From NCBI GenBank assembly GCA_026625185.1, contig CP113000.1:120001-152000 (forward strand): a stretch of 32,000 bases of DNA. Direction: 5' to 3'. This document shows positions 15,105 through 32,000 of this stretch, piece after piece. The notes under the pieces were generated by a model. It did no database searches, was not told where the DNA came from, and saw nothing but the letters and a program-made list of their open reading frames with translations. The stretch comes from Thermodesulfobacteriota bacterium. Its GTDB lineage: Bacteria > Desulfobacterota > WTBG01 > JAGOGO01. Position 1 is the first letter of the stretch. Each line of letters begins with the position of its first letter. Position numbers and translations under genes: made by a program.

Positions 15105-16451
15105 CTAAAAAGTAACCACCGTCTGGAAATAAACCCAGTCGGCATCATCAGAGCTGCCGGTATCCTTAACATATTCTCCGCAGAAAAAGTGAGCGTACCC
15201 ACCTTCAAGAGTCAAAAAGCTAAGGGGCTTACAGGTCATGACCACGTCCAACTCATCCCCCACATAATCCGACACATCGGCCGAGGTGCCTTTGCGTATC
15301 TTCTTGCCCGAAGCGTTATACCAGGCGTCTTCGGTTTCATCCAGATAAAATCTATGATACTGGAGAGATCCTTTCAGGCGGTCTTTAATAGGCGTAAAAT
15401 CCAGGAAACAAGCAACCTCTTTCACGTTTTGCCAGCGAAAAAAGTCAATAATGCCATAAGGCTCGTGGGTAGATTGAAATAAAGGAATAAAAGTTTCAGA
15501 TTTCCCGTCATGCGGCTTGTCGTCGCCGCTGGCAAAGTTGTATTCAATCTTCGCGACCGGTTGAGCAAAACAGTTTTTAAAGGTGTAATTGATATCCCCG
15601 TGCCAGGCATAGGCCTTAATCGTATCGGTTGCTTTATCACCAAGCTGCCAGGCAAATTCGTAACCATAACCCAAAGCATCATAGCACGGCAGCTTACCTT
15701 CACCCCGTGTTCCCAGGGTGACGCGTTCAGAATCGCCATTCTGTTGGTCCTCACCGGTTACCTCCCGATGTTTATCAATAAGGTTTAAGGCGTACAGATC
15801 AAAAACCGATCCCTTAATTCCTTTAAAGGTGGAGTAAACACCGAAAAAGTGTTCGCCAAACTTACCGTCATTAAAATGTCTATCAAGATATTGAACCACG
15901 TTCCCCCAAAACAGGTCAACATCAAACAAATTTGGGTTATAGGTGAGCTTAAAAGCGTCAAAGGAACGCATCAAATTTGGCCACGCAGAACAATGCACCA
16001 AGCGTTTAGCCCCGTAACTTAATTCTTGCCTTCCAATCTTCAGACTCACGGGAAGGTCATTGGGCTTTGATAATAAAAAATATAATTGGTGGAGATCGAA
16101 ATCGTCTTTCTGTGGTTTGGGGCTCACATCTGAGTCCCACTCCCGACCATCCAATCCCTCAAAAAAAAGCAAAACCTTATCATTGATATTTGCGCCCACG
16201 TTGAACCTGGTGCGGGCATAGACGTATCCGTCCTTGTCATTAACGTCATCGTCAAAATCGAAATCCTTCTTATACTCATAGCGGAGACGATACTCGCCTC
16301 CCCAGGTGATTTTTACATTATCAAATTTAAACTCCTTAATCGTTTTAGGCAAAAGCCCTGCATTTTCAGCGCCGAACGCTGTCCCCCCAAAACTCATTAT
16401 ACAAACAACGAAACAAATTTCTAATGCCCAAAAATAGTTCCGTTTCCTCAT
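15105..16451 (-). CDS. Outer-membrane beta-barrel porin (alginate-export/AlgE-like family candidate)
   Basis: Signal peptide (MRKRNYFWALEICFVVCIMSFGGTAFGAEN), WGGEYRLRYEY-type first strand, alternating beta pattern throughout, C-terminal ...FQTVVTF. Start placed at the second ATG (16451), which has a GGGAGAG SD. The track ORF starts 7 codons earlier at 16472. Confidence 0.8.
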   Translation of the reverse strand: MRKRNYFWALEICFVVCIMSFGGTAFGAENAGLLPKTIKEFKFDNVKITWGGEYRLRYEYKKDFDFDDDVNDKDGYVYARTRFNVGANINDKVLLFFEGLDGREWDSDVSPKPQKDDFDLHQLYFLLSKPNDLPVSLKIGRQELSYGAKRLVHCSAWPNLMRSFDAFKLTYNPNLFDVDLFWGNVVQYLDRHFNDGKFGEHFFGVYSTFKGIKGSVFDLYALNLIDKHREVTGEDQQNGDSERVTLGTRGEGKLPCYDALGYGYEFAWQLGDKATDTIKAYAWHGDINYTFKNCFAQPVAKIEYNFASGDDKPHDGKSETFIPLFQSTHEPYGIIDFFRWQNVKEVACFLDFTPIKDRLKGSLQYHRFYLDETEDAWYNASGKKIRKGTSADVSDYVGDELDVVMTCKPLSFLTLEGGYAHFFCGEYVKDTGSSDDADWVYFQTVVTF

Positions 16452-16514
16452 GTTCTCTCCCTTTTTCGACATTAGTTTTTTCTAAATTAAAATCTAAAAC
16501 CAATTGATTTCGGC

Positions 16515-18727: not shown

Positions 18728-19459
18728 TTATTTAACGTATTTGTCTTTATACTCTTTCCAGGAAAAGTCGCTGACCGGTGTAACGGTGAAGACTTCCTTT
18801 TCCGGGGCCGTAAGAATCCGGACCGTCACGCACCGGGACATTGCCTCATACTGAGCATTGGCTTCCGGGTCGGTATCTTTTTTTGCTCTTAACTCTTGCA
18901 TCTCCTTGGGGAATTGAAATGTTGTGGTAAGTTTAATCGCTTTGCCGGTGCTCATGCCGGCAAAAATATAGCAGGAATCACCGATGGTTTTGTCAAACGC
19001 CAAATTGCCGTTAAACGCCCCTTCTGACCCTTTACCGTAGCGAGCGCCGGTCAGGTAACTGATCGCATCCGCAGGACACGCCCGCGGAGTGCCGCTCACC
19101 ACAAATTGATCACCCCGCAGAGGAATTTCTCCCGGATAGAGCTGTGCTAATGCAATCTGAGTAGCGCGGTAACCGAGCGCTATTCCCGGGCAGACGTGAC
19201 CATGAAATTTTTCCAGATCCCCAAAGGTAAGGGTGATATTTTTGATAGTGGCGCACTGAGGCTGCGCGCCTTCTTTGCCCTTATCAAATTTATGTTGTGG
19301 CTTTTCTTGCCCCGGTAGCTTCACGGTAATGGTGGGGATTCCTTCCCACGTGCCACCGCCACCCGCAAGTGCTTTTGTCACCCATGGCAGGACGCAGAAG
19401 GATAGTAAGGCGATAAAAGTAATGGTAATGCCCAAGCAAACTTTTCTGTAATGTTTCAT
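18728..19459 (-). CDS. Exported or membrane-anchored FmdE-domain protein
   Basis: FHGHVCPGIALGYR is the hallmark of the FmdE family (formylmethanofuran dehydrogenase subunit E-like). N-terminal hydrophobic signal/anchor MKHYRKVCLGITITFIALLSFCVLPWVTKALAGGGG. SD AAGGAGG. Confidence 0.75.
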   Translation of the reverse strand: MKHYRKVCLGITITFIALLSFCVLPWVTKALAGGGGTWEGIPTITVKLPGQEKPQHKFDKGKEGAQPQCATIKNITLTFGDLEKFHGHVCPGIALGYRATQIALAQLYPGEIPLRGDQFVVSGTPRACPADAISYLTGARYGKGSEGAFNGNLAFDKTIGDSCYIFAGMSTGKAIKLTTTFQFPKEMQELRAKKDTDPEANAQYEAMSRCVTVRILTAPEKEVFTVTPVSDFSWKEYKDKYVK

Positions 19460-19541
19460 ACTGTGTCCTCCTTGTTATAAAAATTTTTTATATGCGTCAA
19501 AACGATGTGCCCATATGGGCAAGGAAAAGCTTTTGCTAAGC

Positions 19542-20303
19542 TCACTCAAGTCGGTAGATTATCGGCACGCGCACTTCGGCCCTAACCGGCGGCTTGGGGA
19601 AGGGTGCTACTGCCTCTACCGTTTTAACCACATTATCATCCAGCACGTCAAACCCTGAACTCTTGGCGATCTTTATAGTGGTAGCGTTTCCATTTTCCAA
19701 AATTATGAACTCTATGATCACTTTCCCTTGCCAACCCATTCGCTGCGCCCTTGCTGGGTAGGTAATATTTTCTTGGATGATTTTTTTGATATAAGCAAAA
19801 TGCTCACTCAGATACTTTTTTCTAAGTGAATCGGCCGAAATCCCTCCCGTACCATTACCGGCCCCCCCCACCAAACCTCCCCCTCCTCCAAGGCCGGTGC
19901 CGCAAGCAGACTGGTCTCCGGTACCGGGAAGTGTTTCCGTCAGCGGTTGAGTCTTCGGAACCTCGGCTGAAGCTATCGGTACCGGACCTTGCTCCTCAAC
20001 GGGGGTTACAATTTTAGGCTCCGAACATTCATCTACCTTCTTTTCCAGTTGCCTAATCTTTTGCACTATTTTTGGGTTTTCTATTGGTTTTGGTTTATCC
20101 GGTTCCGGCATTTTGGGGGCGAGCAAAACTTTTTCATCTTTCGGAGGCCCGGGAGAATTAATGACCGATTCCAGAATGCTTAAATCAATAATCACCGGTT
20201 TAGTATTCATCAAGGCGCTGGTCGTTCCGATAACCCCGGCCAAAACAATAACCACGGTATGGATAATTAAAGAAACTAAAAACCCGCACGCCTGGCGCTT
20301 CAT
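19542..20303 (-). CDS. tonB: Energy transducer TonB
   Basis: N-terminal TM anchor, Pro/Lys-rich spacer (PKMPEPDKPKPIENPK), Gly-rich linker. C-terminal TonB domain: AQRMGWQGKVIIEFIILENG...SSGFDVLD...PFPKPP. Confidence 0.85.
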   Translation of the reverse strand: MKRQACGFLVSLIIHTVVIVLAGVIGTTSALMNTKPVIIDLSILESVINSPGPPKDEKVLLAPKMPEPDKPKPIENPKIVQKIRQLEKKVDECSEPKIVTPVEEQGPVPIASAEVPKTQPLTETLPGTGDQSACGTGLGGGGGLVGGAGNGTGGISADSLRKKYLSEHFAYIKKIIQENITYPARAQRMGWQGKVIIEFIILENGNATTIKIAKSSGFDVLDDNVVKTVEAVAPFPKPPVRAEVRVPIIYRLE

Positions 20304-20680
20304 CGCTTAATCTCGGTTTGAAGGCTTACCTTGGTAAATCCTAAAGTTTTTACTAAATCAAGCACATCCACAAATACCTGGAGCGCAATTTCCCGATCCG
20401 CCTTGATAAGAACAGGATTGTTTTTATCCAACTTCTGCATTGAGTCTTGGAGGCTTTCTATGGTCATGGGCCGGGAATTGAAATAGATCAGCCCGTTTTT
20501 ATCTATCTCAACGGTCTGAATCTTCAGGGTCATTTCCTGCTTATGCGCTGCCCGGGGAAGGTCTATTGGAATAACGCCTGTGGCAATAAAGGTGGAGGTG
20601 GTAAGCACAATCGTTAAAAGCACCAGCATCACATCAACCAACGGGATTACGTTGATATAATCAAATTCCTTTTCTTCCAT
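20300..20680 (-). CDS. exbD: Biopolymer transport protein ExbD/TolR
   Basis: 126 aa, [20 protein letters not shown] segment plus periplasmic domain. 4-nt overlap with tonB. Confidence 0.85.
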
Positions 20681-21095
20681 GCCTTATCTCCCATTTCATC
20701 ATGATCACCTTCACCCGCCTCAACAGCACGTTATAAAGAACCACCGACGGTATGGCCACCAGTAACCCCACAGCCGTCGCCTTTAAGGCCAGAGCCAGGC
20801 CAATCATGATTTTATTGGTATCCATAAAGCCTTCTTTGCCCATGGTGTAAAAGGTCAACATGATGCCCAGGACGGTTCCCAACAACCCGATATACGGAGC
20901 ATTGCTTCCCACGGTGGCGATAATATGAAGTTTCGCGGTGAGTTTAAGTTCCAGGGTCTTTAAATCAGAAAAATCTCTTACCTTGATGTGCCGGTACACC
21001 AGAAACCGCTCAATGGCGATACCCACCGATAACACACTCATAAAAACTAAAACTCCGATTATTCCGTAATCAACGATTGCTTTAAGCCAGTCCAT
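20661..21095 (-). CDS. exbB: MotA/TolQ/ExbB proton-channel protein (short form)
   Basis: 144 aa, three TM segments, [19 protein letters not shown] motif. 20-nt overlap with exbD. Confidence 0.85.
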
Positions 21096-21154
21096 TGATT
21101 TTTTTGTGCTCCTTTAAGTATGTCCTTGCGCGTTACCAGGGAGGAGTTCTTTTT

Positions 21155-22549
21155 TTATCTATCGTGACTCCTCTGCTTTAATTTTGCCAGGCGACTTATA
21201 ACAAGGTATATAATCCCACCCAGGGCAATGGTTCCTAAACCCCAACCGGATGTTAGTGGTTTATCCTTTAGAGAATAAAAGATGATCCAGAGGTTACCCA
21301 CAATAAATATGATCGGCGTCAATGGGTATCCCCAGGTCTTGTAAGTCGAGTGCCGACGATGATTTCGTCTCCTGAGGATAATCAGGCCGCAGACCGTGAG
21401 CACCGCAAAAAGGGATAAGGTGAATCCGATATAAATAAGAAGTTTATCAAATGAAGCAGTTACGGCCATGACAATAGCGAGGAACCCCTGCAAAACAATA
21501 GCATGAGCAGGAGTATGATGTTTTTTTCTGAGCTTTGCTAACGTCTTAATAAAAACTCCATCCCGCGCCATGGCGTAATATACTCTGGGACCTGCCAAAA
21601 TCATGGCGCTGGTTACCGAGAGCAGACCGATCGCGATTGCTCCAGCAACAAAATAGCTCGCCTTCTCACCAAAGAGCGTTACCGCGGCCTTTGCTCCTAC
21701 CTCTAATACCCCGCTCATCTCCGGCACGCTGAGCGCATAGAGGTAGGTTAGGTTTAAAAGGAAATAAAGAATCATTACCAAAAAAGTCCCGGTTAAAAGC
21801 GAAAACGGAATGTTGCGGGCCGAGTTTTTAATTTCGCTTCCCAAATAAGCAGCCGCATTCCAGCCGCTGTAAGCAAAAGAGATAAAAATAAGCGAGACGG
21901 CAAAGGAGCCCGAAAAAACCGAAGCGGTTTGCGAAGTATCGAACAGGCGCGGCATCGAGCCTTTTCCCAGAAAGAACCCTCCGGCCACAAAGCTCACAAT
22001 CAACAGAAGCTTGAAGGTAGTCAACACATTTTGCACCCGGCTTCCGAACCAAAGACTGTGGGCATGGATCAGGGAAAAAATAATGACGATCACTGAGGCA
22101 AGCATGGTGACGGGCGTGACAATCAGGATTGAACTGTTGCAAAGCGAGGCGTTCATGTCCATAGGCAAGAGGTTGGGGAACGCGCGAAAAAAATAGGTGG
22201 AAAAAGCGATAGTAGCCGCGGCAATGGGAGCGGAAAATCCAACGATCAATGATATCCAACCGGAAAGAAAGGCCGTCAATTTTCCGAAGCTTTCCCGCAG
22301 ATAGACGTATTCTCCTCCGGCGAGGGGAAACATTGCTCCCAGCTCTCCATAGCAGAGAGCGCCGGAAAGAGCGAAAATGCCGCCGATAATCCAGCACAAG
22401 AGCATGGCGCCGGGACTTCCGAGTTCTTGAATAATAAATCCCGAAGTCGTAAAAATCCCGGTGCCGATCATGTTGGCCACCACCAGAATCGTGGCCGAGA
22501 AAAAACCGATCTCGCGCTTTAACCCATTGCTGACATCGTTATGGTTCAT
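21155..22549 (-). CDS. APC-superfamily (amino acid/polyamine/organocation) permease
   Basis: 464 aa, ~12 TM segments, N-terminal FSATILVVANMIGTGIFTTSG motif typical of APC transporters. Substrate not inferable. Confidence 0.8.
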   Translation of the reverse strand: MNHNDVSNGLKREIGFFSATILVVANMIGTGIFTTSGFIIQELGSPGAMLLCWIIGGIFALSGALCYGELGAMFPLAGGEYVYLRESFGKLTAFLSGWISLIVGFSAPIAAATIAFSTYFFRAFPNLLPMDMNASLCNSSILIVTPVTMLASVIVIIFSLIHAHSLWFGSRVQNVLTTFKLLLIVSFVAGGFFLGKGSMPRLFDTSQTASVFSGSFAVSLIFISFAYSGWNAAAYLGSEIKNSARNIPFSLLTGTFLVMILYFLLNLTYLYALSVPEMSGVLEVGAKAAVTLFGEKASYFVAGAIAIGLLSVTSAMILAGPRVYYAMARDGVFIKTLAKLRKKHHTPAHAIVLQGFLAIVMAVTASFDKLLIYIGFTLSLFAVLTVCGLIILRRRNHRRHSTYKTWGYPLTPIIFIVGNLWIIFYSLKDKPLTSGWGLGTIALGGIIYLVISRLAKLKQRSHDR

Positions 22550-22564
22550 GTTGCCTGATACTTT

Positions 22565-24325
22565 TTAATTAAAATGATATCCCTTAACGTCGTTTTCTAA
22601 ACAACCCCCAATATAGATCACGCCCATGGATTTTTCACTTTCTTTTTCCACCACTTTCGGAAGATCGCCCAAGGTGGTTCGCACGAGCGTTTCTTTTTCT
22701 TTACGGCCTGAATTATAAGCAATCGCCGCCGGCGTGGCCTCCGGATAATACTTCTGCAATGTGGGCATGAGGTTTGGCATCTCCCTCAACCCCATGAAAA
22801 TCGCCATTGTTTCACCCTTATCGGCAATCGCTTTAATTAACGCTTCGTTATTTTTAAAGCCATCCGGCGCGATAACCACGATGGTTCCTTTGCATGACAC
22901 ATCCCTTCCCGTAAGAGCATTGGAAGCGTTGAAAGCGCTCAAGCCCGGCACAATTTTCGTGTCCTCGTCTGGCAACGAAGCCTTCAACCATCGCCAGCAC
23001 GTGCCAAAGATAGTAGGATCGCCATAGTCCAAAAACGCCACGTTCTTCCCTTGCGCCAGAGCGTCCTTGACCGTCGTGAGCACCTTATCCCGCTCAGCCT
23101 TCAGTGATTTTTGGAGCTCGTCTTGAGAGAGCTCAGGATGGTTCTTTTTAAAGACCCACTCCATGTAATCTTTATGGTTAAACAGGATCGGCTTTTCTCC
23201 GATATAACGAGCAAATCTCGTCTTCATCTCATCCGGACAGATAAAAACATCAGCCCGGGCAAGGTAAAACAAGGTATCCATGGTGAGGAGGCTCGTGTCA
23301 CCACAGCCCATGCCCATGATGTAGAGTTTTGCATGAGGCTTAATGGTTATGGCCTCTATTTTCGACACGGCTTTTACCCAGCGGCCGGCAGAAAGGCCAT
23401 CCGGGGCGACAAATGCGAATTTGCCGGATTTTTCTAAAGGATGGTTATCGGCGGTATCGGCAATGATCAGGCGGCGCTCTCCCAGCAGATTGAAGAAAAG
23501 CTCTCCATAGGATATAAGGGAACGATATCCGTCCGGATCTGAGACCAAGAAGACCGTGTTTGGATCCGAAGCAACTCCTGCTTTTTCAATGAGTTTCCTT
23601 ACCGAGACCCCGCTAAACTTTTTTAGTTTTGGCGTTCCATTTCCTTCGCCCCTTTGCTTCACGTCCACGTCAATCCGGGGAAAATCAGATAAATTTTTGA
23701 GGGTAAAGGTATTCTTTACTGCTCCCGTGACTGTCACCTCCGAAGATGAGAGCGTTTCTGTCTTTTTAAAAATAAGTCCGGAAGCCACTTTAAGGACCTC
23801 AATCTGGCTTACTTCATTTAAGGAACGATCGGGAAAAATATCATTGGCAATAACCAGCTTGGGAAATCCCATCGGGGATTTGGCGCCTTCAGCGCCGGTA
23901 TCAACCTTGGGGTTCTTCGCGTGAATAGTTGATAGCGCAATCACCACGTCACCGGGATTATGGTCCAGCACTTCTCCCCACGAAAGGACCGTCTGGCTCC
24001 CCTTTTTATTCTTAACCACAATCGCTAAATCTATGGGTTTGAAAAAATTTGCATCTTCATCTTTCTGCACGCACGCCAGTTCAAGCAGGTTCTTCAAAGG
24101 CACACCCCGGAAATACACGTCACCCTCGGAATGTCCTTCGCTGTTGGCGACTTCATTATACCGCACGAAAAGTGACTGCATGTTTTCAAGGTCCTGTAAG
24201 GTTACAAAGAGAGGTTGTTGCACCATGCCGGTAACGGACAAAACCGGCAGGACGCCTGCCCATCCTTTTACACCGACAAGCAAGAGAAACGCCAGTGAGA
24301 AAAGCACCATTATTTTTTTTCGCAT
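22565..24325 (-). CDS. Secreted fusion protein A: signal peptide + two YedY/sulfite-oxidase-like beta domains + C-terminal CbiF/CobM-like tetrapyrrole-methylase fold
   Basis: Signal peptide MRKKIMVLFSLAFLLLVGVKGWAG. Domains at about aa 27-180 and 196-328 carry VTG.V..P...L.DL / GV.L..L...AG / DGY.S..SYGEL / vKavskIE patterns. Aa 333-576 are collinear with precorrin methylases (YIMGMGCGD, LDYGDPTIFG, VPGLSAFNASNALTG, ETMAIFMGL, TPAAIAYN...TLVRTTLGDL, GVIYIGG). Confidence 0.8.
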   Translation of the reverse strand: MRKKIMVLFSLAFLLLVGVKGWAGVLPVLSVTGMVQQPLFVTLQDLENMQSLFVRYNEVANSEGHSEGDVYFRGVPLKNLLELACVQKDEDANFFKPIDLAIVVKNKKGSQTVLSWGEVLDHNPGDVVIALSTIHAKNPKVDTGAEGAKSPMGFPKLVIANDIFPDRSLNEVSQIEVLKVASGLIFKKTETLSSSEVTVTGAVKNTFTLKNLSDFPRIDVDVKQRGEGNGTPKLKKFSGVSVRKLIEKAGVASDPNTVFLVSDPDGYRSLISYGELFFNLLGERRLIIADTADNHPLEKSGKFAFVAPDGLSAGRWVKAVSKIEAITIKPHAKLYIMGMGCGDTSLLTMDTLFYLARADVFICPDEMKTRFARYIGEKPILFNHKDYMEWVFKKNHPELSQDELQKSLKAERDKVLTTVKDALAQGKNVAFLDYGDPTIFGTCWRWLKASLPDEDTKIVPGLSAFNASNALTGRDVSCKGTIVVIAPDGFKNNEALIKAIADKGETMAIFMGLREMPNLMPTLQKYYPEATPAAIAYNSGRKEKETLVRTTLGDLPKVVEKESEKSMGVIYIGGCLENDVKGYHFN

Positions 24326-24330
24326 AGTTA

Positions 24331-25086
24331 TTAGTCCTTTTTATTATTTGTGTTAAGTTGAAAGAAATACCAAAGCATCAAGACCGACATGAACGCTCCG
24401 CCCAATAAAATCAATCGGGTGCCCGGGTCCTTTTTCATGATGATTCGCAAGGGAAGTTGCTCCTTGCTTTTCTGGTCAACATCTAAATGCAAACTCCAGC
24501 CTTGAAACCAACACGGGTGCAAAAAGCTGATCTCTTTTGGATAGGTCTGAGAATCGGTCTTGAGATCTAAGGCGACCGCGCACTGGCGAAGTGGATTCTT
24601 TAAAAGGGAATTTTTCCAGAAAGTCGGTCGCACCTCTTTTACTTCCATGGTTCCGAGTTCAACCGAAATAATATCGCCGGCTTTAATCGGAATCACCTTC
24701 TGGGCGCCGGTAAACACGCTCAAGGCGTGGCCGGATAATGCCATGAGGAAAAAAATATGCATGAGCGAAGGAGAAAGCTTTAAGAAAAATTGACCAAAAC
24801 CAGACCCCCGTCTTTTGGGCCACAGGCCGGCCAGCCGGTCCAGGGTGCAGGCGCCGGTGTTAATGCCTAAGAAGATGAGAAGGAAAAAGAACGAGAAAAT
24901 CCACCAGCTTTTTCCGTCACCAAAAACTTTGAACCATTCCTGAAAGAGCATTTGGTTCAAAGGACGAAAGATGCCGGGACAATACTTTATATAATAAGCC
25001 CCGATGGTTAGATTAAGCGCAATGAGAAATAAAAGATAAAGGCTCAGTTTTACACTGGCTAAAAACCGCCACAGCGCTTTAACCAT
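24331..25086 (-). CDS. Short ResB/CcsB-like membrane protein
   Basis: N-terminus LWRFLASVKLSLYLLFLIALNLTIG and GINTGACTLDRL resemble the ResB N-terminal region. Four TM segments with a ~100-aa periplasmic loop. 8-nt overlap with the upstream CcsA-like gene; SD GGAGGG. Much shorter (251 aa) than typical ResB. Confidence 0.6.
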   Translation of the reverse strand: MVKALWRFLASVKLSLYLLFLIALNLTIGAYYIKYCPGIFRPLNQMLFQEWFKVFGDGKSWWIFSFFFLLIFLGINTGACTLDRLAGLWPKRRGSGFGQFFLKLSPSLMHIFFLMALSGHALSVFTGAQKVIPIKAGDIISVELGTMEVKEVRPTFWKNSLLKNPLRQCAVALDLKTDSQTYPKEISFLHPCWFQGWSLHLDVDQKSKEQLPLRIIMKKDPGTRLILLGGAFMSVLMLWYFFQLNTNNKKD

Positions 25087-25840
25087 TTTTCCCTCCGATC
25101 ATCATTACCAGCTCCGATAATTGGTATTGAAAGGTAAACACGAGAACCAACACCATCCCGGCAATCGCCACCCCGGCTTTTTTTCGCAAATCCCATTTGG
25201 CGACAAAGCTCAAGTGGATGTAGGCGACATAGTAGCACCAGATCGCCGCTGATCCCAAATGCCGATCCGCCCAGTGAAAGGGACTTCCCCAGCCCAGATA
25301 AGCCCAGATGGCACCAAAAACCTGAGAGAGGCTAAAAAGCACGAACCCCCAGATTACAAGATCATGAAAAATCGGAACCTCGATTTTTTTACGGACATAA
25401 AAAAACGCAAGCCAGGCCCCCATAATAAAACAGGCATGAGCCAGCACTTCACAAGCAAAAAACAGGGGGGAGAAGAAAGTCTGATTTTTGGCAAACGGAG
25501 GAATGACTCCTTTCGGGTACACCAGGGTGATGATAGAAAAAAAGAAAATGGGCATGATAATATGGGAAAATAATTTTAGGTCATTTTTAAAGAACCGCAC
25601 TATCAAGCCGATAAAGCCAAGTGACCAGGGAAGAAAGGAGATTTCATTAAACATGGGGTTTGCAAAAAAAAAGCCCAGGTACCAGCCGCGGGTTATTTGA
25701 CTCACCGTATGAAAGACAAACCCGAAAACAAAAAACACCTCGGCCACCCGTTCCTTTTTTAGAAGACCAGAAAAAACACTAACGAGATACCCGCCAAAAG
25801 CAAGATAAAAGGTGATTAAAGAAAGCTCAGCAATTGACAT
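25079..25840 (-). CDS. CcsA/CcmC-family (cytochrome c assembly / heme-handling) membrane protein with a divergent Trp-rich motif
   Basis: GAIWAYLGWGSPFHWADRHLGSAAIWCYYVAYIHL aligns with the CcsA consensus WA...WG.YW.WDPKE....W..Y...LH, but WSWDPKE is replaced by FHWADRH. 8 TM segments. SD AGGGAGG. Confidence 0.7.
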   Translation of the reverse strand: MSIAELSLITFYLAFGGYLVSVFSGLLKKERVAEVFFVFGFVFHTVSQITRGWYLGFFFANPMFNEISFLPWSLGFIGLIVRFFKNDLKLFSHIIMPIFFFSIITLVYPKGVIPPFAKNQTFFSPLFFACEVLAHACFIMGAWLAFFYVRKKIEVPIFHDLVIWGFVLFSLSQVFGAIWAYLGWGSPFHWADRHLGSAAIWCYYVAYIHLSFVAKWDLRKKAGVAIAGMVLVLVFTFQYQLSELVMMIGGKNG

Positions 25841-25956
25841 GAACCCTCCCTTGTCCCAATCAGGATTTTAGATGAAATCATCCCTCACTAAAACAACTAC
25901 AGTTTAGCAATCTTTGTTTGGAAAGAGCCCTATCCTACGCAGTATTTTTTCAGGAG

Positions 25957-26048
25957 GCACCCCCTGGTGCTGTGATTGCTCTCGTCCATGCCGATATCTA
26001 CCCGTTGGACAAGAGCCGACCTATCGCATTCAAAGCACCAGGGGGCAT
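25957..26048 (-). promoter_or_regulatory. Structured intra-operon leader upstream of the CcsA-like gene
   Basis: Perfect 12-bp long-range helix (25960-25971 CCCCCTGGTGCT with 26034-26045 AGCACCAGGGGG) enclosing 62 nt. On the minus-strand RNA the 3' arm can instead fold locally (GCACC-AGGG-GGUGC) and is followed by CCUCC, complementary to the gene's SD. Confidence 0.35.
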
Positions 26049-26117
26049 AGGTAATAGAGGGGGAGAAAATTACTATTCATTTCTTTGACAAAGTCAGTAC
26101 CGCCGCCATTTTTCGAT

Positions 26118-27872
26118 TTAATTAAGGCAGGGGCCGACATAAATCAGTCCCAACCATTTTTCGCTTTCTTTTTCATTTGCTTTTAATACCTCCTGGAGCG
26201 TAGACCTGACTATCTTTTCCTTTTCCGTGTAACCGGCATTATAAACCAGACTTATCGGCGTGGTGCCGGCATAGTATTTCTGCAAAAACGGCACCAGGGT
26301 GGGCAATTCCTTCAGACCCATAAAAATAACCAGCGTTTCACCCTGGTCGGCAATCGCCTTAACCAACGGCTCGTTGCTTTTTAATCCCCGGGGCGCTGTA
26401 ATTACCAGGGATCCGTTGCAGGTCGGATCTCGTTTAAGAAGCGCATTGGAAACGTTAAAAGCGCTGATGCCGGGAACAATCTCGATTTGATCTTCGCTAA
26501 TATAGTCTTTTAAAAAGCGGCCGCTTCCAAAAACTCCGGGATCGCCATACTCCAGATAAGCAACGGTCTTCCCTTCGTTCAAAGCGGCAATAACTTTTTG
26601 AACTTCCTTCGCACGCTGTTCTTTGAGAAGTTTTTCCTTTTCCTCTTGCGTGAGGTTTGGGTTGGGCTTGTGAATAATCTGTTCCAATGAATGGATCGGA
26701 TTAAAGAGCACCGGCTTGTCCCCGATATAACCGGCAAGGCTGTTTTTCAGCTCATCGGAACACACAAAAGCATCCGCCTTGGATAGACAGGAAAGCGCTT
26801 CGAGAGTAATCAGTTTTGTTTCCGAACACCCGATACTGATGATGTAAACCCTGGGCTCTTTTTTCAGAGTGATTACCTCTATCTTATCAACTGACTTCAC
26901 AGTCCGGTCCGCTGAAAGATCATTGGGCAGAACGAGCATGAACTTTCCGGTTTTTTTCAAGGGCTGATTATCCACGGTATCCGCGAGCATAATCTCTGCG
27001 CCCGCGCGCGAAAGGAAGAGCTCACCGTAGGATACCAGCGACCGGTATCCATCAGGAGCAGAAGCGATAATAACGGAATTTAAATCCGGCTTGATTCCGG
27101 CTTTCTCGAGGAGAACGCTCAGCGAAACCCCCTTATACTTATTAAATCCGTGAAAACCTTTGCCTTCGCCGACCTGTTTGGCAAATAACGCGGTCTGAGG
27201 ATAGGAAGAGATTTTTTTAAGTTCTGATGACTTTCCTTTGCCTGAGATAACCGTTACTTTTGGCGAAAAAATACTTTCTCCCTTTTTTCCCTGAATCGGC
27301 AGGTGGAGGTCCACCACCTCAATGTTGGTAATCTCCTCAATACACCGGTCGGTGTAAAAATCATTAGCCACCACCAAGGTGGGAAGGCCAACGTTTCGTT
27401 TTAACTGATCAACCATGTTCGGAGCGATTTCCTGAGCAAAAGCCGGATCACCTAACTTTTTAGGCATGATCGGAGTAGCTTCAATGCCGACGATGATATC
27501 CCCCGGGTTCCGGTAGAATACCTCGCCCCAGGAAAGCACCACCTGCTCGCCTTTCTTGTTTCGAACCACTATCGCCAGGTCAACCAGCTTGGAAAATGCC
27601 GACGCCTCTTTTCTGACTCCCGCAAGATCAAGCAGGGCTTGGAGTGAAGGCCCGTGAAAATAAAACACTCCGTGAAAACTTTTGTCTTTGGACACCTCAT
27701 TGAGCCGCACACAAGCGCTGTCAAACTTTTTAAGGTCTTCCATATTCATATACAGCGGCTGTTTCACCTCGCCCGTGATGCTGATCACGGATTGCGCATC
27801 CGCCCATGCCTGAACAGTGAAAAAGCAGCCTACGGCAATCAAAAAAACAATGGAAATTATTTTTTTAAACAT
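26118..27872 (-). CDS. Secreted fusion protein B (paralog of 22565-24325)
   Basis: Same architecture as protein A and collinear with it throughout. Signal peptide MFKKIISIVFLIAVGCFFTVQAWADA. Methylase-like domain with YIISIGCSE, LEYGDPGVFG, VPGISAFNVSNALL, ETLVIFMGL, GLIYVGP. Start placed at the ATG (27872) after the TTG listed in the ORF track; SD AAGGGA. Confidence 0.8.
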   Translation of the reverse strand: MFKKIISIVFLIAVGCFFTVQAWADAQSVISITGEVKQPLYMNMEDLKKFDSACVRLNEVSKDKSFHGVFYFHGPSLQALLDLAGVRKEASAFSKLVDLAIVVRNKKGEQVVLSWGEVFYRNPGDIIVGIEATPIMPKKLGDPAFAQEIAPNMVDQLKRNVGLPTLVVANDFYTDRCIEEITNIEVVDLHLPIQGKKGESIFSPKVTVISGKGKSSELKKISSYPQTALFAKQVGEGKGFHGFNKYKGVSLSVLLEKAGIKPDLNSVIIASAPDGYRSLVSYGELFLSRAGAEIMLADTVDNQPLKKTGKFMLVLPNDLSADRTVKSVDKIEVITLKKEPRVYIISIGCSETKLITLEALSCLSKADAFVCSDELKNSLAGYIGDKPVLFNPIHSLEQIIHKPNPNLTQEEKEKLLKEQRAKEVQKVIAALNEGKTVAYLEYGDPGVFGSGRFLKDYISEDQIEIVPGISAFNVSNALLKRDPTCNGSLVITAPRGLKSNEPLVKAIADQGETLVIFMGLKELPTLVPFLQKYYAGTTPISLVYNAGYTEKEKIVRSTLQEVLKANEKESEKWLGLIYVGPCLN

Positions 27873-27965
27873 CAAGTTTTCCCTTTCTTCTATCCCTTAC
27901 CATTATCCCCTTTACCTCTCTTTTTGGAAAAGAGGGGGGGCTGGGGGATCTTAAATCTCTATACC

Positions 27966-28017
27966 ACTAACAACTAACAATTATCAACTAACAATGAAAC
28001 TAACACCAACACTAACC
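27966..28017. repeat. Five copies of heptamer ACTAACA (minus-strand UGUUAGU) directly after the TBDR2 stop codon
   Basis: Copies start at 27966, 27973, 27987, 27999 and 28011 (the last is ACTAACC), giving spacings of 7, 14, 12 and 12 nt. Confidence 0.8.
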
Positions 28018-30135
28018 TTAGTATTTCGCCGTCAACCCGAACCAGACGGTTCTTCCCATTGCCGGGAAACCATACTCAGGCTCGTAGTCCCGGTCGAGCA
28101 TGTTGTTCATCGCCATGTAAGCTTCAAAATACTTCAGGAAGTTCTGCGAAATCCGGCAGTCAAACGTCATCTGCGAGTCGCTTTTGATCGTAGGATCTTT
28201 CGGATACGTTGGCGTAGGGAGCCGGGAGTAGACTTGGGCCACATAAATAGCGTTAAAATCAAGCCGGGTTCCTATTCTCGGCACAGTATACCGAAGCCCA
28301 ACATCAAATTTATGGAGCGGAGTATTGAGAACCTTATCCGTTACCCGGCCTTCGCTGTGATCTTTGGCTCGATTGTACATGTAATCAAAGCTTAGCACCA
28401 GGTTCTTTACCCAGGGCGGATAAAATTCGGTATTGAGTTCAAAACCAGCCATTCTAATTTTCCCGAAATTCAAATAGTTCCCACCTTGATCCGGAGGAAG
28501 GTCGCGGGTAATCCAGTCTGATATGCGGTGATAAAAATAGGCAAGCTCTAACCAGGCGAGATTACCAAAAGCATGATTTACCCCAAAGGTAGTGTTGACG
28601 CTTTGCTCTGTTTTTAAATCGGGATTCCCCCCCGAGGTCGAATAGAGTTCCTGCAAGGTAGGAAAGCGGGTTTTTTTAGCAACTGAGGTAAAAAGCTTGG
28701 TATCTTTATCAATCTGATAGGTAAGGCCCCCCATGGGATTGAAGGAATGGGAAATTGGCGCTGTTTTGTTATCCCTTTGGGCTTGCAAATCCCCGTATTC
28801 AACTCCAGGCGGCAACACTGGATCATCTTTTGAGTTCCAAGTATCATTATAATTTGACCCTTTAATATCGAACCAGTCGTAGCTCACCCCGGCAACCAGG
28901 GCAAGGTTTTTAATGAGGGCAAACTCATTTTCCAAGCCTAAAGAACCGGTGTAGGTATAGGATTTCGAGAAGGGCAGGTATTCATCATTTTTTTCTTTAT
29001 GGATGTCCCTGGTTAAATGATAGGAAAACCGAAGGATGTCCCAGGAAACCGGCTGGTAATCCGCAAAGAATTTTCCTCCCCAGCTTTCATCATTGTACAA
29101 GCTGTCAGCAATGTTATTTTTAAAGTCATACCAGTCATAGGATTCATATATATCGTCGTGTTTGTGATAAAAAAGTTTGCCCCGTAAGGTCAATTGATCG
29201 AAAACTTTTTGCTTCCCGCTTAAATCAAGAGCCCAGTCATCATATTTTGGCCAGCGATTAAACGGAGTGAACGCCGGTCGTGTAAGGAACATCCGTGAAG
29301 CTTCCCGTATGCTGGGAGGCACCCCCTTTTCACGGTCAATGTAATAAAAATTTGCGTAATATTCGGAATCAGGGTTAAATTCGACACCAACTTTGGCCCA
29401 GATCGCGTGTTTTTGGGAGTCCGAATTATTGCGGTATCCACCATTTTCCATTTCATAAGTACCAGTTTTTCCTTTAATTGTCCCTTGAACCGGCTTAAAA
29501 TCATCCGAGAGCCGCCATCCTAATGTCTCCTCATGGGTGTAGTTTAACCAGTAGCTGAAAATCCCTTTTTTCCACCCGGTAGAAAAGGATTCCCTATCAC
29601 TACCGTGTTCCCCCATCTCAAAGGTGGCTGAAGCTGCCATTTTTGTAGTGGCTTTTTTGGTAACGATGTTGATAACCCCGCCCATGGCGCCCGCGCCATA
29701 AATGACCGAAGGTGCCCCCTTGGTAATTATGATTTTGGCGATGTTGTCCGTCGGTATGGAGGAAAGGTCGAGTTTATGGTAATTCTGCTCGTAATAGGGA
29801 ACACCGTCAATGAGCACCAGGAGGCGTTCCTGACCAAAACCCTGGATCGAAATGTAGGGTTCGTTTTTCTTGCCGGTGGAAACCCGCACTCCCGGAGCAT
29901 GGGCCAGAGCTTCAGCCACATTTGTGCTGTGAGTGGCTTTAATCTGCTCTGCCGTTACTTCGTTAGTGATAGCCATTTCGGTAACAGCCGCCGGCTTTTC
30001 ACCGGATACAACTATTTCACCCAGGTCATAGGCGGTAAAATCAGCTTCTTCGTCTTTTTCTGCCGACCATGCCGGGAGGGAAAAAGCAAACAACAAACTA
30101 AAACTAATTAATAATAATAAAACTTTTACCCTCAT
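28018..30135 (-). CDS. TonB-dependent outer-membrane receptor (TBDR2)
   Basis: Signal peptide MRVKVLLLLISFSLLFAFSLPAWSA, TonB box DLGEIVVSG, plug motifs (VAEALAHAPGVRV, LVLIDGVPY, GGVINIVTKKA). 705-aa barrel ending ...FGLTAKY. SD AAGGAGG. Confidence 0.9.
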   Translation of the reverse strand: MRVKVLLLLISFSLLFAFSLPAWSAEKDEEADFTAYDLGEIVVSGEKPAAVTEMAITNEVTAEQIKATHSTNVAEALAHAPGVRVSTGKKNEPYISIQGFGQERLLVLIDGVPYYEQNYHKLDLSSIPTDNIAKIIITKGAPSVIYGAGAMGGVINIVTKKATTKMAASATFEMGEHGSDRESFSTGWKKGIFSYWLNYTHEETLGWRLSDDFKPVQGTIKGKTGTYEMENGGYRNNSDSQKHAIWAKVGVEFNPDSEYYANFYYIDREKGVPPSIREASRMFLTRPAFTPFNRWPKYDDWALDLSGKQKVFDQLTLRGKLFYHKHDDIYESYDWYDFKNNIADSLYNDESWGGKFFADYQPVSWDILRFSYHLTRDIHKEKNDEYLPFSKSYTYTGSLGLENEFALIKNLALVAGVSYDWFDIKGSNYNDTWNSKDDPVLPPGVEYGDLQAQRDNKTAPISHSFNPMGGLTYQIDKDTKLFTSVAKKTRFPTLQELYSTSGGNPDLKTEQSVNTTFGVNHAFGNLAWLELAYFYHRISDWITRDLPPDQGGNYLNFGKIRMAGFELNTEFYPPWVKNLVLSFDYMYNRAKDHSEGRVTDKVLNTPLHKFDVGLRYTVPRIGTRLDFNAIYVAQVYSRLPTPTYPKDPTIKSDSQMTFDCRISQNFLKYFEAYMAMNNMLDRDYEPEYGFPAMGRTVWFGLTAKY

Positions 30136-30163
30136 GATACTCCTCCTTTTTTTAATATCGGGG

Positions 30164-30268
30164 CTATCTCAGTTCTAATTCCGAGAGTCCCAGAGCCACT
30201 TGATTTTTGAGTAAATCTATTCGACTGATTATCTTATCAGCGAGTTTAAGAAGTTCCATATCATTCAT
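30164..30268 (-). CDS. Candidate 34-aa small ORF (MNDMELLKLADKIISRIDLLKNQVALGLSELELR)
   Basis: Hand-translated; below the ORF-track size cutoff. ATG preceded by AAGGAGG with a 7-nt spacer. Fills the gap between the 109-aa ORF and TBDR2. Predicted amphipathic helix. Confidence 0.4.
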   Translation of the reverse strand: MNDMELLKLADKIISRIDLLKNQVALGLSELELR

Positions 30269-30272
30269 ACTC

Positions 30273-30602
30273 TTACCTCCTTTCACACTTTAGAAGTTCA
30301 TCCATCTTTAAAGTCCTCTCCACATACTTCCCTCCATCAGAATTTCTCTTATATAACAACAAGTTCAACTTTCCATGTAAGAAAACAAACATACTACAGG
30401 CTATATGTCCCATAGTACTTAATCCTGTAGGAAGTATATAATCATCTGGAGAGGAATCCTTTAGTTTCTCAGCGAACAGTCTATAAATCTGAGTTGTTCC
30501 ATAACGGGATATTACTCCCTCCGAGAGATATACAAGTTCTCCAAATCTCTCAGCATCTTCGTTATCGTGTCCTCCACGGTTGACAATAAAAACCTTTTTC
30601 AT
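30273..30602 (-). CDS. Hypothetical 109-aa protein, first gene of the TBDR2 array
   Basis: ORF with SD AAAGGA. Visibly more A+T-rich than its neighbours. No family recognised. Confidence 0.55.
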   Translation of the reverse strand: MKKVFIVNRGGHDNEDAERFGELVYLSEGVISRYGTTQIYRLFAEKLKDSSPDDYILPTGLSTMGHIACSMFVFLHGKLNLLLYKRNSDGGKYVERTLKMDELLKCERR

Positions 30603-30712
30603 GATTAGAATCCTTTCGGTATAGTTGGGATCGAATCTACTGGTTGAAGAGGGTCTATTATCTCAACATTATTTTTTAACTCTTTTTTCTTTTTTAAAAA
30701 AAATAATATTTC

Positions 30713-30745
30713 AGCTATAATATAGCTAAAATATAGCCTTGTCAA
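30713..30745 (-). promoter_or_regulatory. Candidate sigma70 promoter of the long minus-strand array, with a palindromic operator over the -10
   Basis: Minus-strand TTGACA (30745-30740), 17-nt spacer, TATTAT (30722-30717). A perfect 7-1-7 palindrome AGCTATA-A-TATAGCT (30713-30727) covers the -10. Confidence 0.45.
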
Positions 30746-30777
30746 GAAAATAATTACAAATAATTACAAATAATATT
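30746..30777. repeat. Three tandem 10-bp-phased AAATAATTAC-type repeats abutting the -35, including the exact 12-mer ACAAATAATTAC (30756-30767)
   Basis: GAAAATAATTAC / AAATAATTAC / AAATAATATT. The 12-mer is identical to 9648-9659 and the reverse complement of 9558-9569. Confidence 0.6.
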
Positions 30778-30890
30778 ATCAAACAACTAAAATTACCTTT
30801 TTGGATAGACATTATGGGCAATTTATTACTAATGAGTTCCTCTAAAAATGTTTTTCCTGCGAAAGCAGTAATCCAGAACTAATCGAAATT

Positions 30891-30993
30891 ACCGGACTCC
30901 CGCACCTGTGCCTTCCAGGGTATTCGCGGGAGTGACAACCTGGGAATTATTAGAGGTGCCCTAATGGGATCCTGAAGGTTGGATTAAAACCGG
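30891..30993. other. GC-rich structured segment in a 528-nt gene-free gap (candidate ncRNA or regulatory RNA; strand unresolved)
   Basis: Hairpin 1: ACTCCCGC (30896-30903) with GCGGGAGT (30926-30933), inner CCTG/CAGG. Hairpin 2: CAACCT (30936-30941) with AGGTTG (30976-30981), inner ATTAG/CTAAT. Flanking ACCGG...CCGG. Confidence 0.25.
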
Positions 30994-31130: not shown

Positions 31131-32000
31131 CTAAAGTTCCGCCATTACCTTGCCGGTATCTTTGGTATCGTATCCGCCCATTTTGTTTATGCTTTGTTTA
31201 AACTCCGGAGACCGGATTACCTCAACCAGGGAAACTATGGGCTGCGCAGATAAATTTTCTCTGGGAATAACGAAATCATATTGTTCGTTTGTCAGGTGAA
31301 TAAAGGTTAGATTTAACATCTTGGCAGCTGACAAAATGCCTAAGCCCACATCTACTGCCCCGCTGGCAACTGCCATAGCCACTTCAAAATGAGTGTTGAC
31401 TTCTTTTTCATACCCATCAAGCCGCATTGGCTCAATGCCAACTTTCTTACATTCATAATCAAAAAGCACTCTGGTGCCGGATCCTTCTTGCCGGTTAATG
31501 ATTTTGATTGCCGTCCGGGACAAGTCCTTAATGGACAAAATGTTTAAAGGATTTTCCGGCTTTACCATTAAACCAATATCACGATAGGCTAAATTGATGA
31601 CCGTGGTTCTAATCCCCGGGAGATAACGGGAGATGTACGGGACATTGTATTGGCCGGTGTCAGGATCAAAAAGATGGCAGCCGGCTATGTGGCTGTTCCC
31701 CCTGCCCAAGGCAATAAGTCCGGCCAAACTTCCGACGTTCGAAAAAGAAAGACTATATTCAGAAAACCGTCTGCTTAATTCATGCGAGAGCAATTCTACC
31801 GTAAAATCATTGCTTCCCATGATCACGATATGATCTTTCAGCTCTCTCGGTTTGTTTTTGAGGCCGATATTTTCCTTAGCGCTTTCGACGATCCACCCTT
31901 CAACTAATCGCCTCGGAAAAGTCCACTTGCCCGTAACCTTGGTCCCCGGTATTTTCTTTTCCTTTAAAAGTTTATAAACCAGCTTTTCATTTATATTGAG
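31131..32000 (-). CDS. Transcriptional regulator: excisionase/MerR-type HTH + periplasmic-binding-protein-like (molybdate/tungstate-binding-type) sensor domain; 5' end beyond the window
   Basis: The frame stays open from 31826 up to base 32000 with no stop (hand-translated: LNINEKLVYKLLKEKKIPGTKVTGKWTFPRRLVEGWI..., an HTH). The downstream 230 aa resemble the PBP-like domain found fused to HTH in putative oxyanion-responsive regulators (IMGSNDF..., NRQEGSGTR). Confidence 0.7.
   Translation of the reverse strand, partial: LNINEKLVYKLLKEKKIPGTKVTGKWTFPRRLVEGWIVESAKENIGLKNKPRELKDHIVIMGSNDFTVELLSHELSRRFSEYSLSFSNVGSLAGLIALGRGNSHIAGCHLFDPDTGQYNVPYISRYLPGIRTTVINLAYRDIGLMVKPENPLNILSIKDLSRTAIKIINRQEGSGTRVLFDYECKKVGIEPMRLDGYEKEVNTHFEVAMAVASGAVDVGLGILSAAKMLNLTFIHLTNEQYDFVIPRENLSAQPIVSLVEVIRSPEFKQSINKMGGYDTKDTGKVMAEL

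Follow-up and report, generated by a model that had tools for sequence, protein, structure and literature searches.

All characterised class III tetrapyrrole methylases are, to our knowledge, cytoplasmic. With regard to tungsten and molybdenum (W/Mo), the only uptake routes known to us are ATP-binding cassette (ABC) transporters for free oxyanions, and TupABC with TunR-type regulation was reportedly described for sulfate reducers by Kazakov et al. in 2013. For the sulfite-oxidase (SUOX) fold, PruR is an experimentally characterised, Sec-exported, truncated and Cys-less representative that holds free pterins between the Tyr of its N-x-Y motif and a Trp (PMC11194511), while some PruR groups (C and D) carry D-x-Y (PMC11194511). 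Furthermore, dedicated ResB/ResC pairs adjoin their client cytochromes in Geobacter genomes (PMC2700814). Here, we analysed the 32,000-nt stretch CP113000.1 120,001-152,000 of Thermodesulfobacteriota bacterium GCA_026625185.1 (in the following called the window; all positions are window-based and collected in Table 1). It encodes two paralogous fusions, paralog A and paralog B, of SUOX-like domains with a CbiF-like tetrapyrrole-methylase domain.

Our central finding is that both paralogs belong to an exported family that is widespread in anaerobes, uncharacterised and of undescribed architecture. We tentatively read this family, with a confidence slightly short of even, as the periplasmic partner of a TonB-dependent receptor, i.e., as a cargo handler for import that acts within an operon under W/Mo-type control.

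Fusion architecture, export and family

Paralogs A and B align end to end with 46% identity (517 bits), such that the two homologous ~585-aa proteins listed in a preliminary description of this DNA are both present as open reading frames (ORFs); the ATG of paralog B is found at 27872, one codon past a TTG. The motifs quoted there (GMGCGD/SIGCSE, GDPxxFG, VPG[LI]SAFN, FMGL, IY[IV]G) all occur in the sequences, and four Cys positions are indeed common to both paralogs. The Pfam profile TP_methylase (PF00590) covers the C-terminal domain with profile positions 1-211 of 212 (E-values 6e-37 for A and 1e-37 for B; 128 and 130 bits vs. a gathering score of 27.8), and Oxidored_molyb (PF00174) matches the second N-terminal domain (41 and 44 bits vs. 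24). AlphaFold2 models are confident, with a predicted local distance difference test (pLDDT) of 85.4 (A) and 83.9 (B). Based on these models, Foldseek relates the C-terminus to CbiF/CobM (3ndc, 2cbf, 4e16; E 1e-15 to 1e-16, target template modelling score (TM) 0.77-0.79) and also to CysG, SUMT, NirE, CbiL and CobJ, all within a two-lobed alpha/beta fold, and the N-terminal half to SorA (E 8e-8), SoxC, sulfite oxidase, nitrate reductase, YedY and PruR. Profile and fold matches thus agree with the earlier assignment of a precorrin-methyltransferase-like C-terminus and of YedY/sulfite-oxidase-like N-terminal domains.

Both paralogs start with Sec-like n/h/c leaders (MRKK-hydrophobic-GWA/G and MMFKK-hydrophobic-AWA/D, the slash marking the cleavage point), i.e., with a basic n-region, a hydrophobic core and a small-residue cleavage site. 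Using a simple heuristic for signal peptides, a Sec-type leader was assigned to 174/190 family members, a Tat-like RR to 6/190 and a lipobox to 7/190, which bears out the signal peptides claimed before. Independent support for export comes from a CxxCH motif in 158 of 192 members (82%), since CxxCH is matured only outside the cytoplasm. Here and below, conservation figures refer to an alignment of 192 non-identical members. The co-variation of Cys478 and Cys575 (P0001 numbering; both present in 149 members, neither in 36, discordant in 7; p = 6e-31, uncorrected for phylogeny) shows the pattern of a putative structural disulfide and thereby also supports export; Cys341 (SAM loop, i.e., of the S-adenosylmethionine site) and Cys363 co-occur more loosely in the same alignment. 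All genes neighbouring the paralogs are envelope genes, which we counted toward export as well. In a Spirochaetota variant (L003), the domains are split into a two-SUOX-domain lipoprotein, a 299-aa TP_methylase and a Metallophos phosphoesterase, each with its own leader, so that export of the methylase fold is not an artefact of a single gene model. The leaders, the CxxCH share and the co-varying Cys pairs do not fit a cytoplasmic location, and the prediction of both paralogs as Sec-exported periplasmic proteins is thus confirmed at this level.

The same evidence bears on the possibility that the proteins are ordinary cytoplasmic precorrin-4/precorrin-2 methyltransferases of cobalamin or siroheme synthesis, as their database names and the Pfam TP_methylase match would have it. 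The NCBIfam equivalog for CobM/CbiF, TIGR01465, reaches only 70.2 (A) and 64.2 (B) bits vs. a cutoff of 259.65, and all other methylase equivalogs are far below their cutoffs, too. Furthermore, no cob/cbi biosynthesis genes are found in the neighbourhood. Given these scores, the signal peptides, CxxCH and disulfide-like Cys pairs as well as the gene context, this explanation is effectively refuted and its probability virtually nil.

Within a search of 5.8 billion proteins, we found 189 relatives; among the 120 listed, all share the architecture except for a few truncated ones. They bear generic or misleading names only, e.g., 'precorrin-4 methylase' or 'SAM-dependent methyltransferase', and the database labels precorrin methylase and molybdopterin oxidoreductase appear to be wrong for these proteins. 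A scan of one genome per species identified 353 loci. Thermodesulfobacteriota are represented by Smithella, Syntrophus, Syntrophorhabdus, Desulfatiglandales, Desulfobacteraceae, Geobacter and Desulfuromonas, and further members are found in Nitrospirota, Spirochaetota/Leptospirales and Abyssobacteria. NCBIfam holds no model for either the fusion or the stand-alone N-terminal module, and the literature on this architecture, on W or molybdenum cofactor (Moco) uptake via TonB and on Geobacter annotations provided no description, in line with the earlier statement that the architecture belongs to no described family. With regard to side observations, a group II intron domain (RF02012, 48 bits; L032:13519-13658 (+)) is located just 3' of the family gene on a Desulfatiglandales contig.

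The N-terminal half (N-module) consists of two truncated SUOX-fold domains of ~150 aa. In domain 1, NEVT stands opposite NQCSGN, the Mo-ligand context of SorA, and in domain 2 a short G-[DE]-G-x-G-[YF]-H-G hairpin replaces the long Cys hairpin. That is, the Mo-ligand Cys that the preliminary description could not find is missing from both. Like SorAB, SoxCD and YedY (MsrP), which provide the best fold matches for the N-terminal half, the family is periplasmic, and its combination of heme c and SUOX domains recalls SorAB. Unlike these enzymes, it has no Mo-ligand Cys, a Sec instead of a Tat leader, a truncated pocket and no dimerisation domain. A canonical Moco enzyme was therefore rejected, based on the missing Mo-ligand Cys and Tat signal.

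The best small structural match of the N-module within Foldseek is PruR (7kom; target TM 0.72, root-mean-square deviation 3.0). The family shares with PruR of Agrobacterium and Vibrio (7kom, 7kou) the Sec export, the truncated SUOX domain of ~130-150 aa, the shortened Cys hairpin and the absence of a Mo-ligand Cys. Domain 2 conserves D98-G97-Y100 (residues with percent conservation), which at motif level resembles the N/D-x-Y stacking motif in the form of PruR groups C/D; domain 1 has no N/D-x-Y motif. The equivalent of PruR's Trp160 is partly conserved, i.e., it is the Trp of DRWVKA in paralog A and the consensus, Thr in paralog B and variable elsewhere. Unlike PruR, the N-module has no PW motif, its domain is duplicated in tandem and usually accompanied by c-heme, and instead of a DcpA-type c-di-GMP enzyme it is accompanied by a TonB-dependent receptor, a LAT permease and a CcsBA-like pair. 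Thus, PruR-DcpA signalling was rejected (no DcpA partner), and so was PruR membership at sequence level (no profile match). The resemblance to PruR is one of fold and logic, not of membership, and by this analogy a pterin-type pocket within the N-module is plausible. The family takes the Cys-less SUOX fold of the PruR class into a setting with heme and an associated receptor. The preliminary description had proposed a periplasmic protein that binds, carries or modifies a tetrapyrrole- or pterin-type cofactor; the pterin half of this proposal thereby gains plausibility, while a tetrapyrrole or corrinoid cargo is disfavoured by the data of the next section.

Stand-alone N-modules are more common than the fusion. 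An exhaustive profile search yielded 2260 matches with E <= 1e-3, 132 of them with E <= 1e-30; these are exported proteins of 330-390 aa, and each sampled one shows one CxxCH and the His hairpin.

Receptor partnership and tungsten/molybdenum context

To characterise the genomic neighbourhood, we surveyed 43 non-redundant loci in which the family gene is flanked by 4 kb or more on each side, where the ORFs of the fetched related loci were called mechanically. A TonB-dependent receptor is found near the family gene in 39/43 loci, an adjacency that spans several phyla, a LAT-type permease in 27/43, a CcsA-like gene in 26/43 and TonB in 23/43. The comparison of fused and N-module-only genes was restricted to complete genes followed by 1.5 kb of sequence or more. 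Here, a receptor is nearby for 79/97 fused and 16/16 N-only genes, and a CcsA-like gene for 53/97 and 11/16, respectively. Since both accompany N-only genes, the N-module would be the core partner of the receptor and the heme pair. Stand-alone N-module genes adjoin TonB-dependent receptors, too; for instance, L090 shows the order receptor, N-module, complete HTH_17+PF12727 regulator and ModA-like gene. Within the window, the gene order is as described before: the paralogs follow a TonB-dependent receptor and bracket the CcsA-like/ResB-like pair.

The receptor of the window stays below every substrate-specific NCBIfam cutoff, and its likeness to structures in the PDB is generic (plug of CirA and BtuB). 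Its best NCBIfam match is a heme/hemoglobin receptor subfamily, with 162 bits vs. a cutoff of 317. This match, FecCD/Peripla_BP_2 genes near the family gene in 8 loci, the adjacent heme-handling pair and the fact that the methylase fold normally binds tetrapyrroles would agree with a non-catalytic periplasmic binder or carrier of heme or corrinoid, with the methylase fold re-employed as a tetrapyrrole pocket and heme transported by the CcsBA-like pair. We consider this very improbable, since the receptor's partner is the N-module, often without any methylase fold, and the methylase-like domain goes with an amino-acid exchanger, a type of transporter unable to carry tetrapyrroles. Furthermore, the regulatory context is of W/Mo type, no genes for heme uptake or heme degradation were found in the conserved core, and cobalamin riboswitches are missing: neither the window nor 18 related loci contain a cobalamin, Moco, SAM or tetrahydrofolate (THF) riboswitch. 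Corrinoid uptake was judged unlikely for the same reason, i.e., a cobalamin riboswitch in none of the 19 loci. The only riboswitch in this set is a c-di-GMP-I aptamer (GEMM-I; L068:7210-7290 (+), 47.8 bits), located directly 5' of a cluster of receptor, fusion protein, permease and TonB in a Pelobacter metagenome-assembled genome. Some GEMM-I aptamers of Geobacter relatives sense cyclic GMP-AMP (cGAMP) and thereby regulate genes for electron transfer.

At least one W/Mo gene (TupA, TupB, PF12727 regulator, WtpA/ModA-like) is present within 8 kb in 22/43 loci. In the window, the regulator gene upstream of the operon combines HTH_17 (E 1.9e-4, profile positions 11-47 of 51) with PF12727 (PBP_like, E 5e-69) and, within NCBIfam, hits PRK14498, a MoeA fusion, in its C-terminal domain (239 bits). 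This architecture we take to be that of the tungstate-responsive TunR family. A candidate operator, TTTGTAATTATTTGT, occurs in tandem at the candidate operon promoter and again in the divergent intergenic region of tupB and a second receptor. With at most 2 mismatches, it has 4 matches in the window vs. 0.13 expected, a number reached by 0/100 shuffles. The 12-mer core of the operator is absent from the close relatives L008 and L009, and elsewhere it is found at chance level only.

Like the TupABC/TunR systems of sulfate reducers, the window thus encodes a TupA-like protein with TTTS motif as part of the operon itself, a TupB-like permease (215 bits as TupB vs. 92 as ModB) and the HTH_17+PF12727 regulator, while known Tup systems are unlike this one in that they have no TonB-dependent receptor, hemoprotein or methylase-like component. 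The system would be an outer-membrane and periplasmic extension of W/Mo acquisition. An AlgE-like barrel follows the TupA-like genes in the window and is equivalently placed after TupA in L008 and L009, with a Porin_O_P gene, i.e., a phosphate-selective-type porin, there in the Nitrospirota locus L001. This arrangement suggests a separate route for free oxyanion, from which we infer that the cargo of the TonB-dependent receptor is a different one. In L001:6425-11747 (Thermodesulfovibrionales), four tandem TupA-like PBP_like_2 genes, followed by Porin_O_P, are located 3' of the cluster, which suggests several oxyanion specificities.

The W/Mo regulon is also what speaks for a pterin-cofactor system, i.e., SUOX-like domains that would bind molybdopterin, tungstopterin or a breakdown product scavenged by the receptor, for salvage of the cofactor or for extraction of W/Mo to be passed to TupA. 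It would further agree with the SUOX fold and the PruR-like pocket with its conserved D-G-Y, with the exported FmdE-domain protein of the operon and with the exported Metallophos phosphoesterase of the Spirochaetota variant, which could cleave dinucleotide cofactors. We know of no bacterial Moco transporter or salvage route, however, and no Moco riboswitch was found in the window and the 18 related loci. In addition, the 'Mo site' hairpin seems to serve as a heme ligand instead (see below), and truncated pockets of the PruR type are too short for Moco (PMC11194511). We thus regard a pterin-cofactor system as quite improbable.

Heme site, methylase-like domain and exchanger

The CxxCH motif of the family is part of a domain 1 loop with consensus M-P-H-x-x-C-x-x-C-H. 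The His of the domain 2 hairpin is present in 100% of the members with CxxCH vs. 32% of those without. Since it tracks CxxCH, the hairpin His is likely the distal heme ligand; the heme would then be placed between the two N-terminal domains, over the Mo position of the SUOX fold. Neither window paralog shows CxxCH or an alternative CXnC[HK] motif. The lineage of paralog A has neither the heme loop, which is deleted, nor the hairpin His, which is replaced (GEGNGTPK), while paralog B keeps this His (GEGKGFHG). Covalent heme binding is thus lost in both copies; paralog B may bind heme non-covalently, and paralog A has lost the whole putative heme site. A further residue that differs between the two groups is Met at P0001 residue 355 (end of the first methylase-like helix), observed in 78% of CxxCH members vs. 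6% of motif-less ones; it could be a heme contact, an alternative ligand or a phylogenetic artefact.

The CcsA-like protein passes the Pfam threshold (41.5 bits vs. 29.9), while NCBIfam CcsB is reached with only 48 vs. 188 bits. Among 39 homologs, W179, W184 and W190 (WWD-like) as well as H209 are invariant, and H189 and H194 are found in 62% and 72%, respectively. For the ResB-like partner, H110, H120, C80, W51 and W62 are invariant among 43 homologs. The pair thus resembles the System II proteins CcsBA/ResBC in its WWD-type Trp and conserved His and in that it adjoins a CxxCH protein in many loci. It differs from them in the size of the partners (only ~250 aa), in its single invariant His after the WWD motif and in its persistence beside CxxCH-less members, including those of the window and Smithella. 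A dedicated lyase for the family's CxxCH had been suggested by two loci and was rejected by the independence of pair and motif within the 43 well-flanked loci: both are present in 22 (TT), only one of the two in 16 (TF) and 4 (FT), and neither in 1 (FF). Motif-less members that keep the hairpin His, i.e., paralog B, those of six Smithella loci and that of L061, are accompanied by the pair at their locus. Most parsimoniously, the pair would deliver heme to the N-module with or without covalent attachment.

The 278 nt that separate paralog B from the CcsA-like gene contain a conserved RNA hairpin with a minimum free energy (MFE) of -51 kcal/mol (z -3.44). This hairpin recurs at the equivalent position in L008:8282-8363 and L009:4159-4239 with a 13-bp GC-rich outer stem. 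No Rfam match was obtained, and the 3 sequences show no compensatory changes; the hairpin could serve in intercistronic processing, transcript stability or attenuation.

With regard to the C-terminal domain, the preliminary description had concluded from the altered SAM loop that the fold is non-catalytic. This argument is weak, since the motifs of the SAM pocket are nearly invariant across the family. The loop itself reads G87-x-G99-[C85/P10]-[G54/A41]-D95, where canonical GPGD is observed in 10% of the members; GMGCGD of paralog A fits GxGxGD with Cys replacing Pro, and SIGCSE of paralog B does not. Further blocks are G98-D100-P100, P79-G91-x-S97-x-F95-N96-x-x-N96-A98, F98-x-G95-L91 and Y98 of the final strand, with S463 (97%), F465 (95%), N466 (96%), A470 (98%), F510 (98%) and Y571 (98%) as numbered residues. 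The mean conservation of the methylase-like domain is 0.62 vs. 0.61 for the N-module. As its pocket motifs are as conserved as the N-module, the alignment argues for a domain that is not degenerate and that maintains a SAM-type ligand pocket. Like CbiF/CobM, the domain shows the full-length PF00590 profile, the fold and a collinear series of GxGxGD-type loop, GDP, PGxS and FxGL. Unlike CbiF/CobM, it is exported, fused to SUOX-like domains, without cobalamin or siroheme genes nearby, extended by ~40 helical residues between the first two motif blocks and equipped with a loop Cys for Pro in 85% of the members. Class III methylases are dimers, and for this reason the two paralogs may act as a heterodimer.

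In the window, the gene directly 3' of paralog A encodes a LAT/SLC7-type exchanger of the APC superfamily, with PDB sequence matches to xCT (7e-52), b0,+AT, LAT2 and BasC (4e-46). The gap between family gene and permease has a median of 12 bp, with many overlaps, among 47 loci, and translational coupling of the fused gene and the permease is likely. A permease is located immediately 3' of 59/97 fused but 0/16 N-only genes (Fisher p = 1.9e-6). It thus belongs with the methylase-like domain, i.e., this domain is an add-on that travels with the LAT-type exchanger.

The conserved pocket motifs, with canonical GPGD in a tenth of the members, and the close permease linkage also raise the possibility of a periplasmic SAM-dependent methyltransferase. 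Here, the exchanger would swap cytoplasmic SAM for periplasmic S-adenosylhomocysteine (SAH), and the CbiF-like domain would methylate the imported cargo or a ligand of the N-module. LAT/SLC7 proteins perform obligatory amino-acid exchange, and APC permeases for SAM and S-methylmethionine exist in yeast and E. coli. SAM and SAH both belong to the alpha-amino acids, so that supply of an exported methylase by such an exchanger is conceivable. The stand-alone exported TP_methylase of L003 is consistent with this as well. On the other hand, we know of no periplasmic SAM pool or SAM exporter in bacteria, 38/97 fused genes (including those of Spirochaetota loci) have no permease immediately 3', the loop of paralog B is SIGCSE, no methyl acceptor can be named, and motif conservation can mean binding without catalysis. 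This methyltransferase overlaps with the reading that we prefer and adds the stronger claim of catalysis; we deem it rather unlikely. It is unlikely, too, that all parts combine into a first periplasmic SAM methylation system, with SAM/SAH passing a dedicated LAT-type exchanger, a TonB-imported cargo, a previously unknown high-affinity route to complexed W/Mo in anoxic habitats and a redox binding site of heme-c/PruR-like type. Independent of the W/Mo context, an exported tetrapyrrole-methylase fold with a SAM-type pocket that is tied to an exchanger challenges the cytoplasm-only view of SAM chemistry.

Proposed cargo handling and further window features

In the reading that we tentatively prefer, i.e., the family as the receptor's periplasmic cargo handler, the receptor would import a scarce organic species that is complexed with or linked to W/Mo, not free tungstate, which would take the separate route via porin, TupA and TupBC. 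The N-module would capture or redox-process this cargo. In most members, it would do so with a c-type heme that is held by the domain 1 CxxCH loop and by the His of the domain 2 hairpin that replaces the Mo-Cys loop; this heme would be supplied by the CcsA/ResB-like pair. The CbiF-like add-on would work with the downstream exchanger, and because of this tie its ligand is probably of adenosyl or amino-acid type and would cross the inner membrane through the exchanger.

Several points weigh against this reading. The cargo handling and the role in W/Mo import are deduced from sequence and context. For about half of the well-flanked loci, no W/Mo gene is found in a range of 8 kb, the operator has been observed in this genome only and its regulator is assumed to be the TunR-type protein, and the TupA-like pair reaches 224.7 and 156.7 bits with NCBIfam TupA (NF041772), below the cutoff of 400. 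With regard to the N-module, the domain 2 profile matches no PruR chain even at E <= 10, such that the likeness is restricted to the fold. As both window copies are without CxxCH, the heme-based part may not hold for them, and the client of the CcsBA-like pair is deduced, given that the pair is uncorrelated with CxxCH. Finally, our contingency tests ignore phylogenetic non-independence.

Compared to these results, the preliminary description was partly right. It missed that the family consists mostly of hemoproteins, the core role of the TonB-dependent receptor, the W/Mo context, the conservation of the methylase-like domain and its tie to the exchanger. The hemoprotein nature was invisible to its reader because CxxCH is lost in both window copies.

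W/Mo enzymes underpin formate, aldehyde and aromatic metabolism in syntrophs, sulfate reducers and metal reducers. A TonB-dependent module under W/Mo-type control, if true, would mean that anaerobes harvest complexed metal, which bears on trace-metal limitation in sediments, digesters and aquifers.

Table 1. Features of the window discussed in the text (aa, amino acids; E, E-value).
Feature	Position	Strand	Remarks
ECF-type transporter	4119-7458	-	putatively co-regulated set sharing the operator
Second TonB-dependent receptor	7486-9513	-	putatively co-regulated set sharing the operator
Further copy of TTTGTAATTATTTGT	9555-9569	+	tupB/second-receptor divergent intergenic region
Further copy of TTTGTAATTATTTGT	9648-9662	-	tupB/second-receptor divergent intergenic region
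TupB-like permease	9774-10466	+	
ABC ATPase	12290-12967	+	putatively co-regulated set
AlgE-like outer-membrane barrel	15105..16472	-	Pfam Alginate_exp E 1e-69; possible anion porin; unit membership uncertain
TupA-like binding protein	16907-17752	-	with TTTS motif
TupA-like binding protein	17854-18684	-	without TTTS motif
FmdE-domain protein	18728..19459	-	signal-like leader (translation); Pfam FmdE E 7e-24; PDB 2glz, 3d00
TonB	19542-20303	-	Pfam; recurrent in related loci
ExbD	20300-20680	-	Pfam; recurrent in related loci
ExbB	20661-21095	-	Pfam; recurrent in related loci
LAT/SLC7-type APC amino-acid exchanger	21155..22549	-	15 bp 3' of paralog A; Pfam AA_permease_2 E 2e-57
Paralog A	22565..24325	-	586 aa; signal peptide, two truncated SUOX/PruR-like domains, CbiF-like TP_methylase; SAM loop GMGCGD
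ResB/CcsB-like membrane partner	24331..25086	-	251 aa; no Pfam match; always paired with CcsA-like gene
CcsA-like membrane protein	25079..25840	-	253 aa; Pfam Cytochrom_C_asm E 1.6e-10
Conserved intercistronic RNA hairpin	25961..26050	-	
Paralog B	26118..27875	-	585 aa; architecture as paralog A; SAM loop SIGCSE
TonB-dependent receptor	28018..30135	-	first large operon gene; Pfam Plug and TonB_dep_Rec_b-barrel
Candidate operon promoter TTGACA-17-TATTAT	30717..30745	-	best sigma-70-like match (11/12) in 16400-31200; consensus match only
Candidate operator TTTGTAATTATTTGT, two tandem copies	30746..30770	-	abut the -35 hexamer
TunR-type regulator gene	31131..32000	-	HTH_17 and PF12727; 5' end cut by window edge, frame open to the end

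The putatively co-regulated set that shares the operator also includes the TupB-like permease. Its ECF-type (energy-coupling factor) transporter comprises a fused double ATPase, CbiQ, a 241-aa protein similar to TiaS-TCKD/'methanogenesis marker 11' and a YkoE-like membrane protein (PF09819). The same five-gene set (4119-9513 in the window) accompanies the family in the Spirochaetota loci L003, L057 and L062 and in L031. Between the TupB-like permease and the ATPase, 10641-12216 (+) encodes a protein of amino-acid-kinase fold (archaeal-UMP-kinase-like, 58 bits, below cutoff) and a PadR regulator.

The region 30165-30602 (-) between promoter and receptor gene is AT-rich (36% GC) and holds a 109-aa ORF similar to phage Pam3_gp32 (E 3e-9), followed by an ORF of ~34 aa; the gp32-like gene was not found in the other loci. 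At the far end of the window, 370-4045 (+) encodes in a row a MoxR-type AAA_5 ATPase, a von Willebrand factor A (VWA) protein and a hydrolase of metallo-beta-lactamase (MBL) fold. AAA_5/VWA pairs are similar to CoxD/CoxE and CobS/CobT, which insert metal cofactors, and MBL-fold genes are also located near family members in L004 and L007. A membrane protein of the BrkB/YihY family is encoded at most a few kb away from the cluster in the window (13393-14724 (-)) as well as in L006, L017 and L020, i.e., in four loci.

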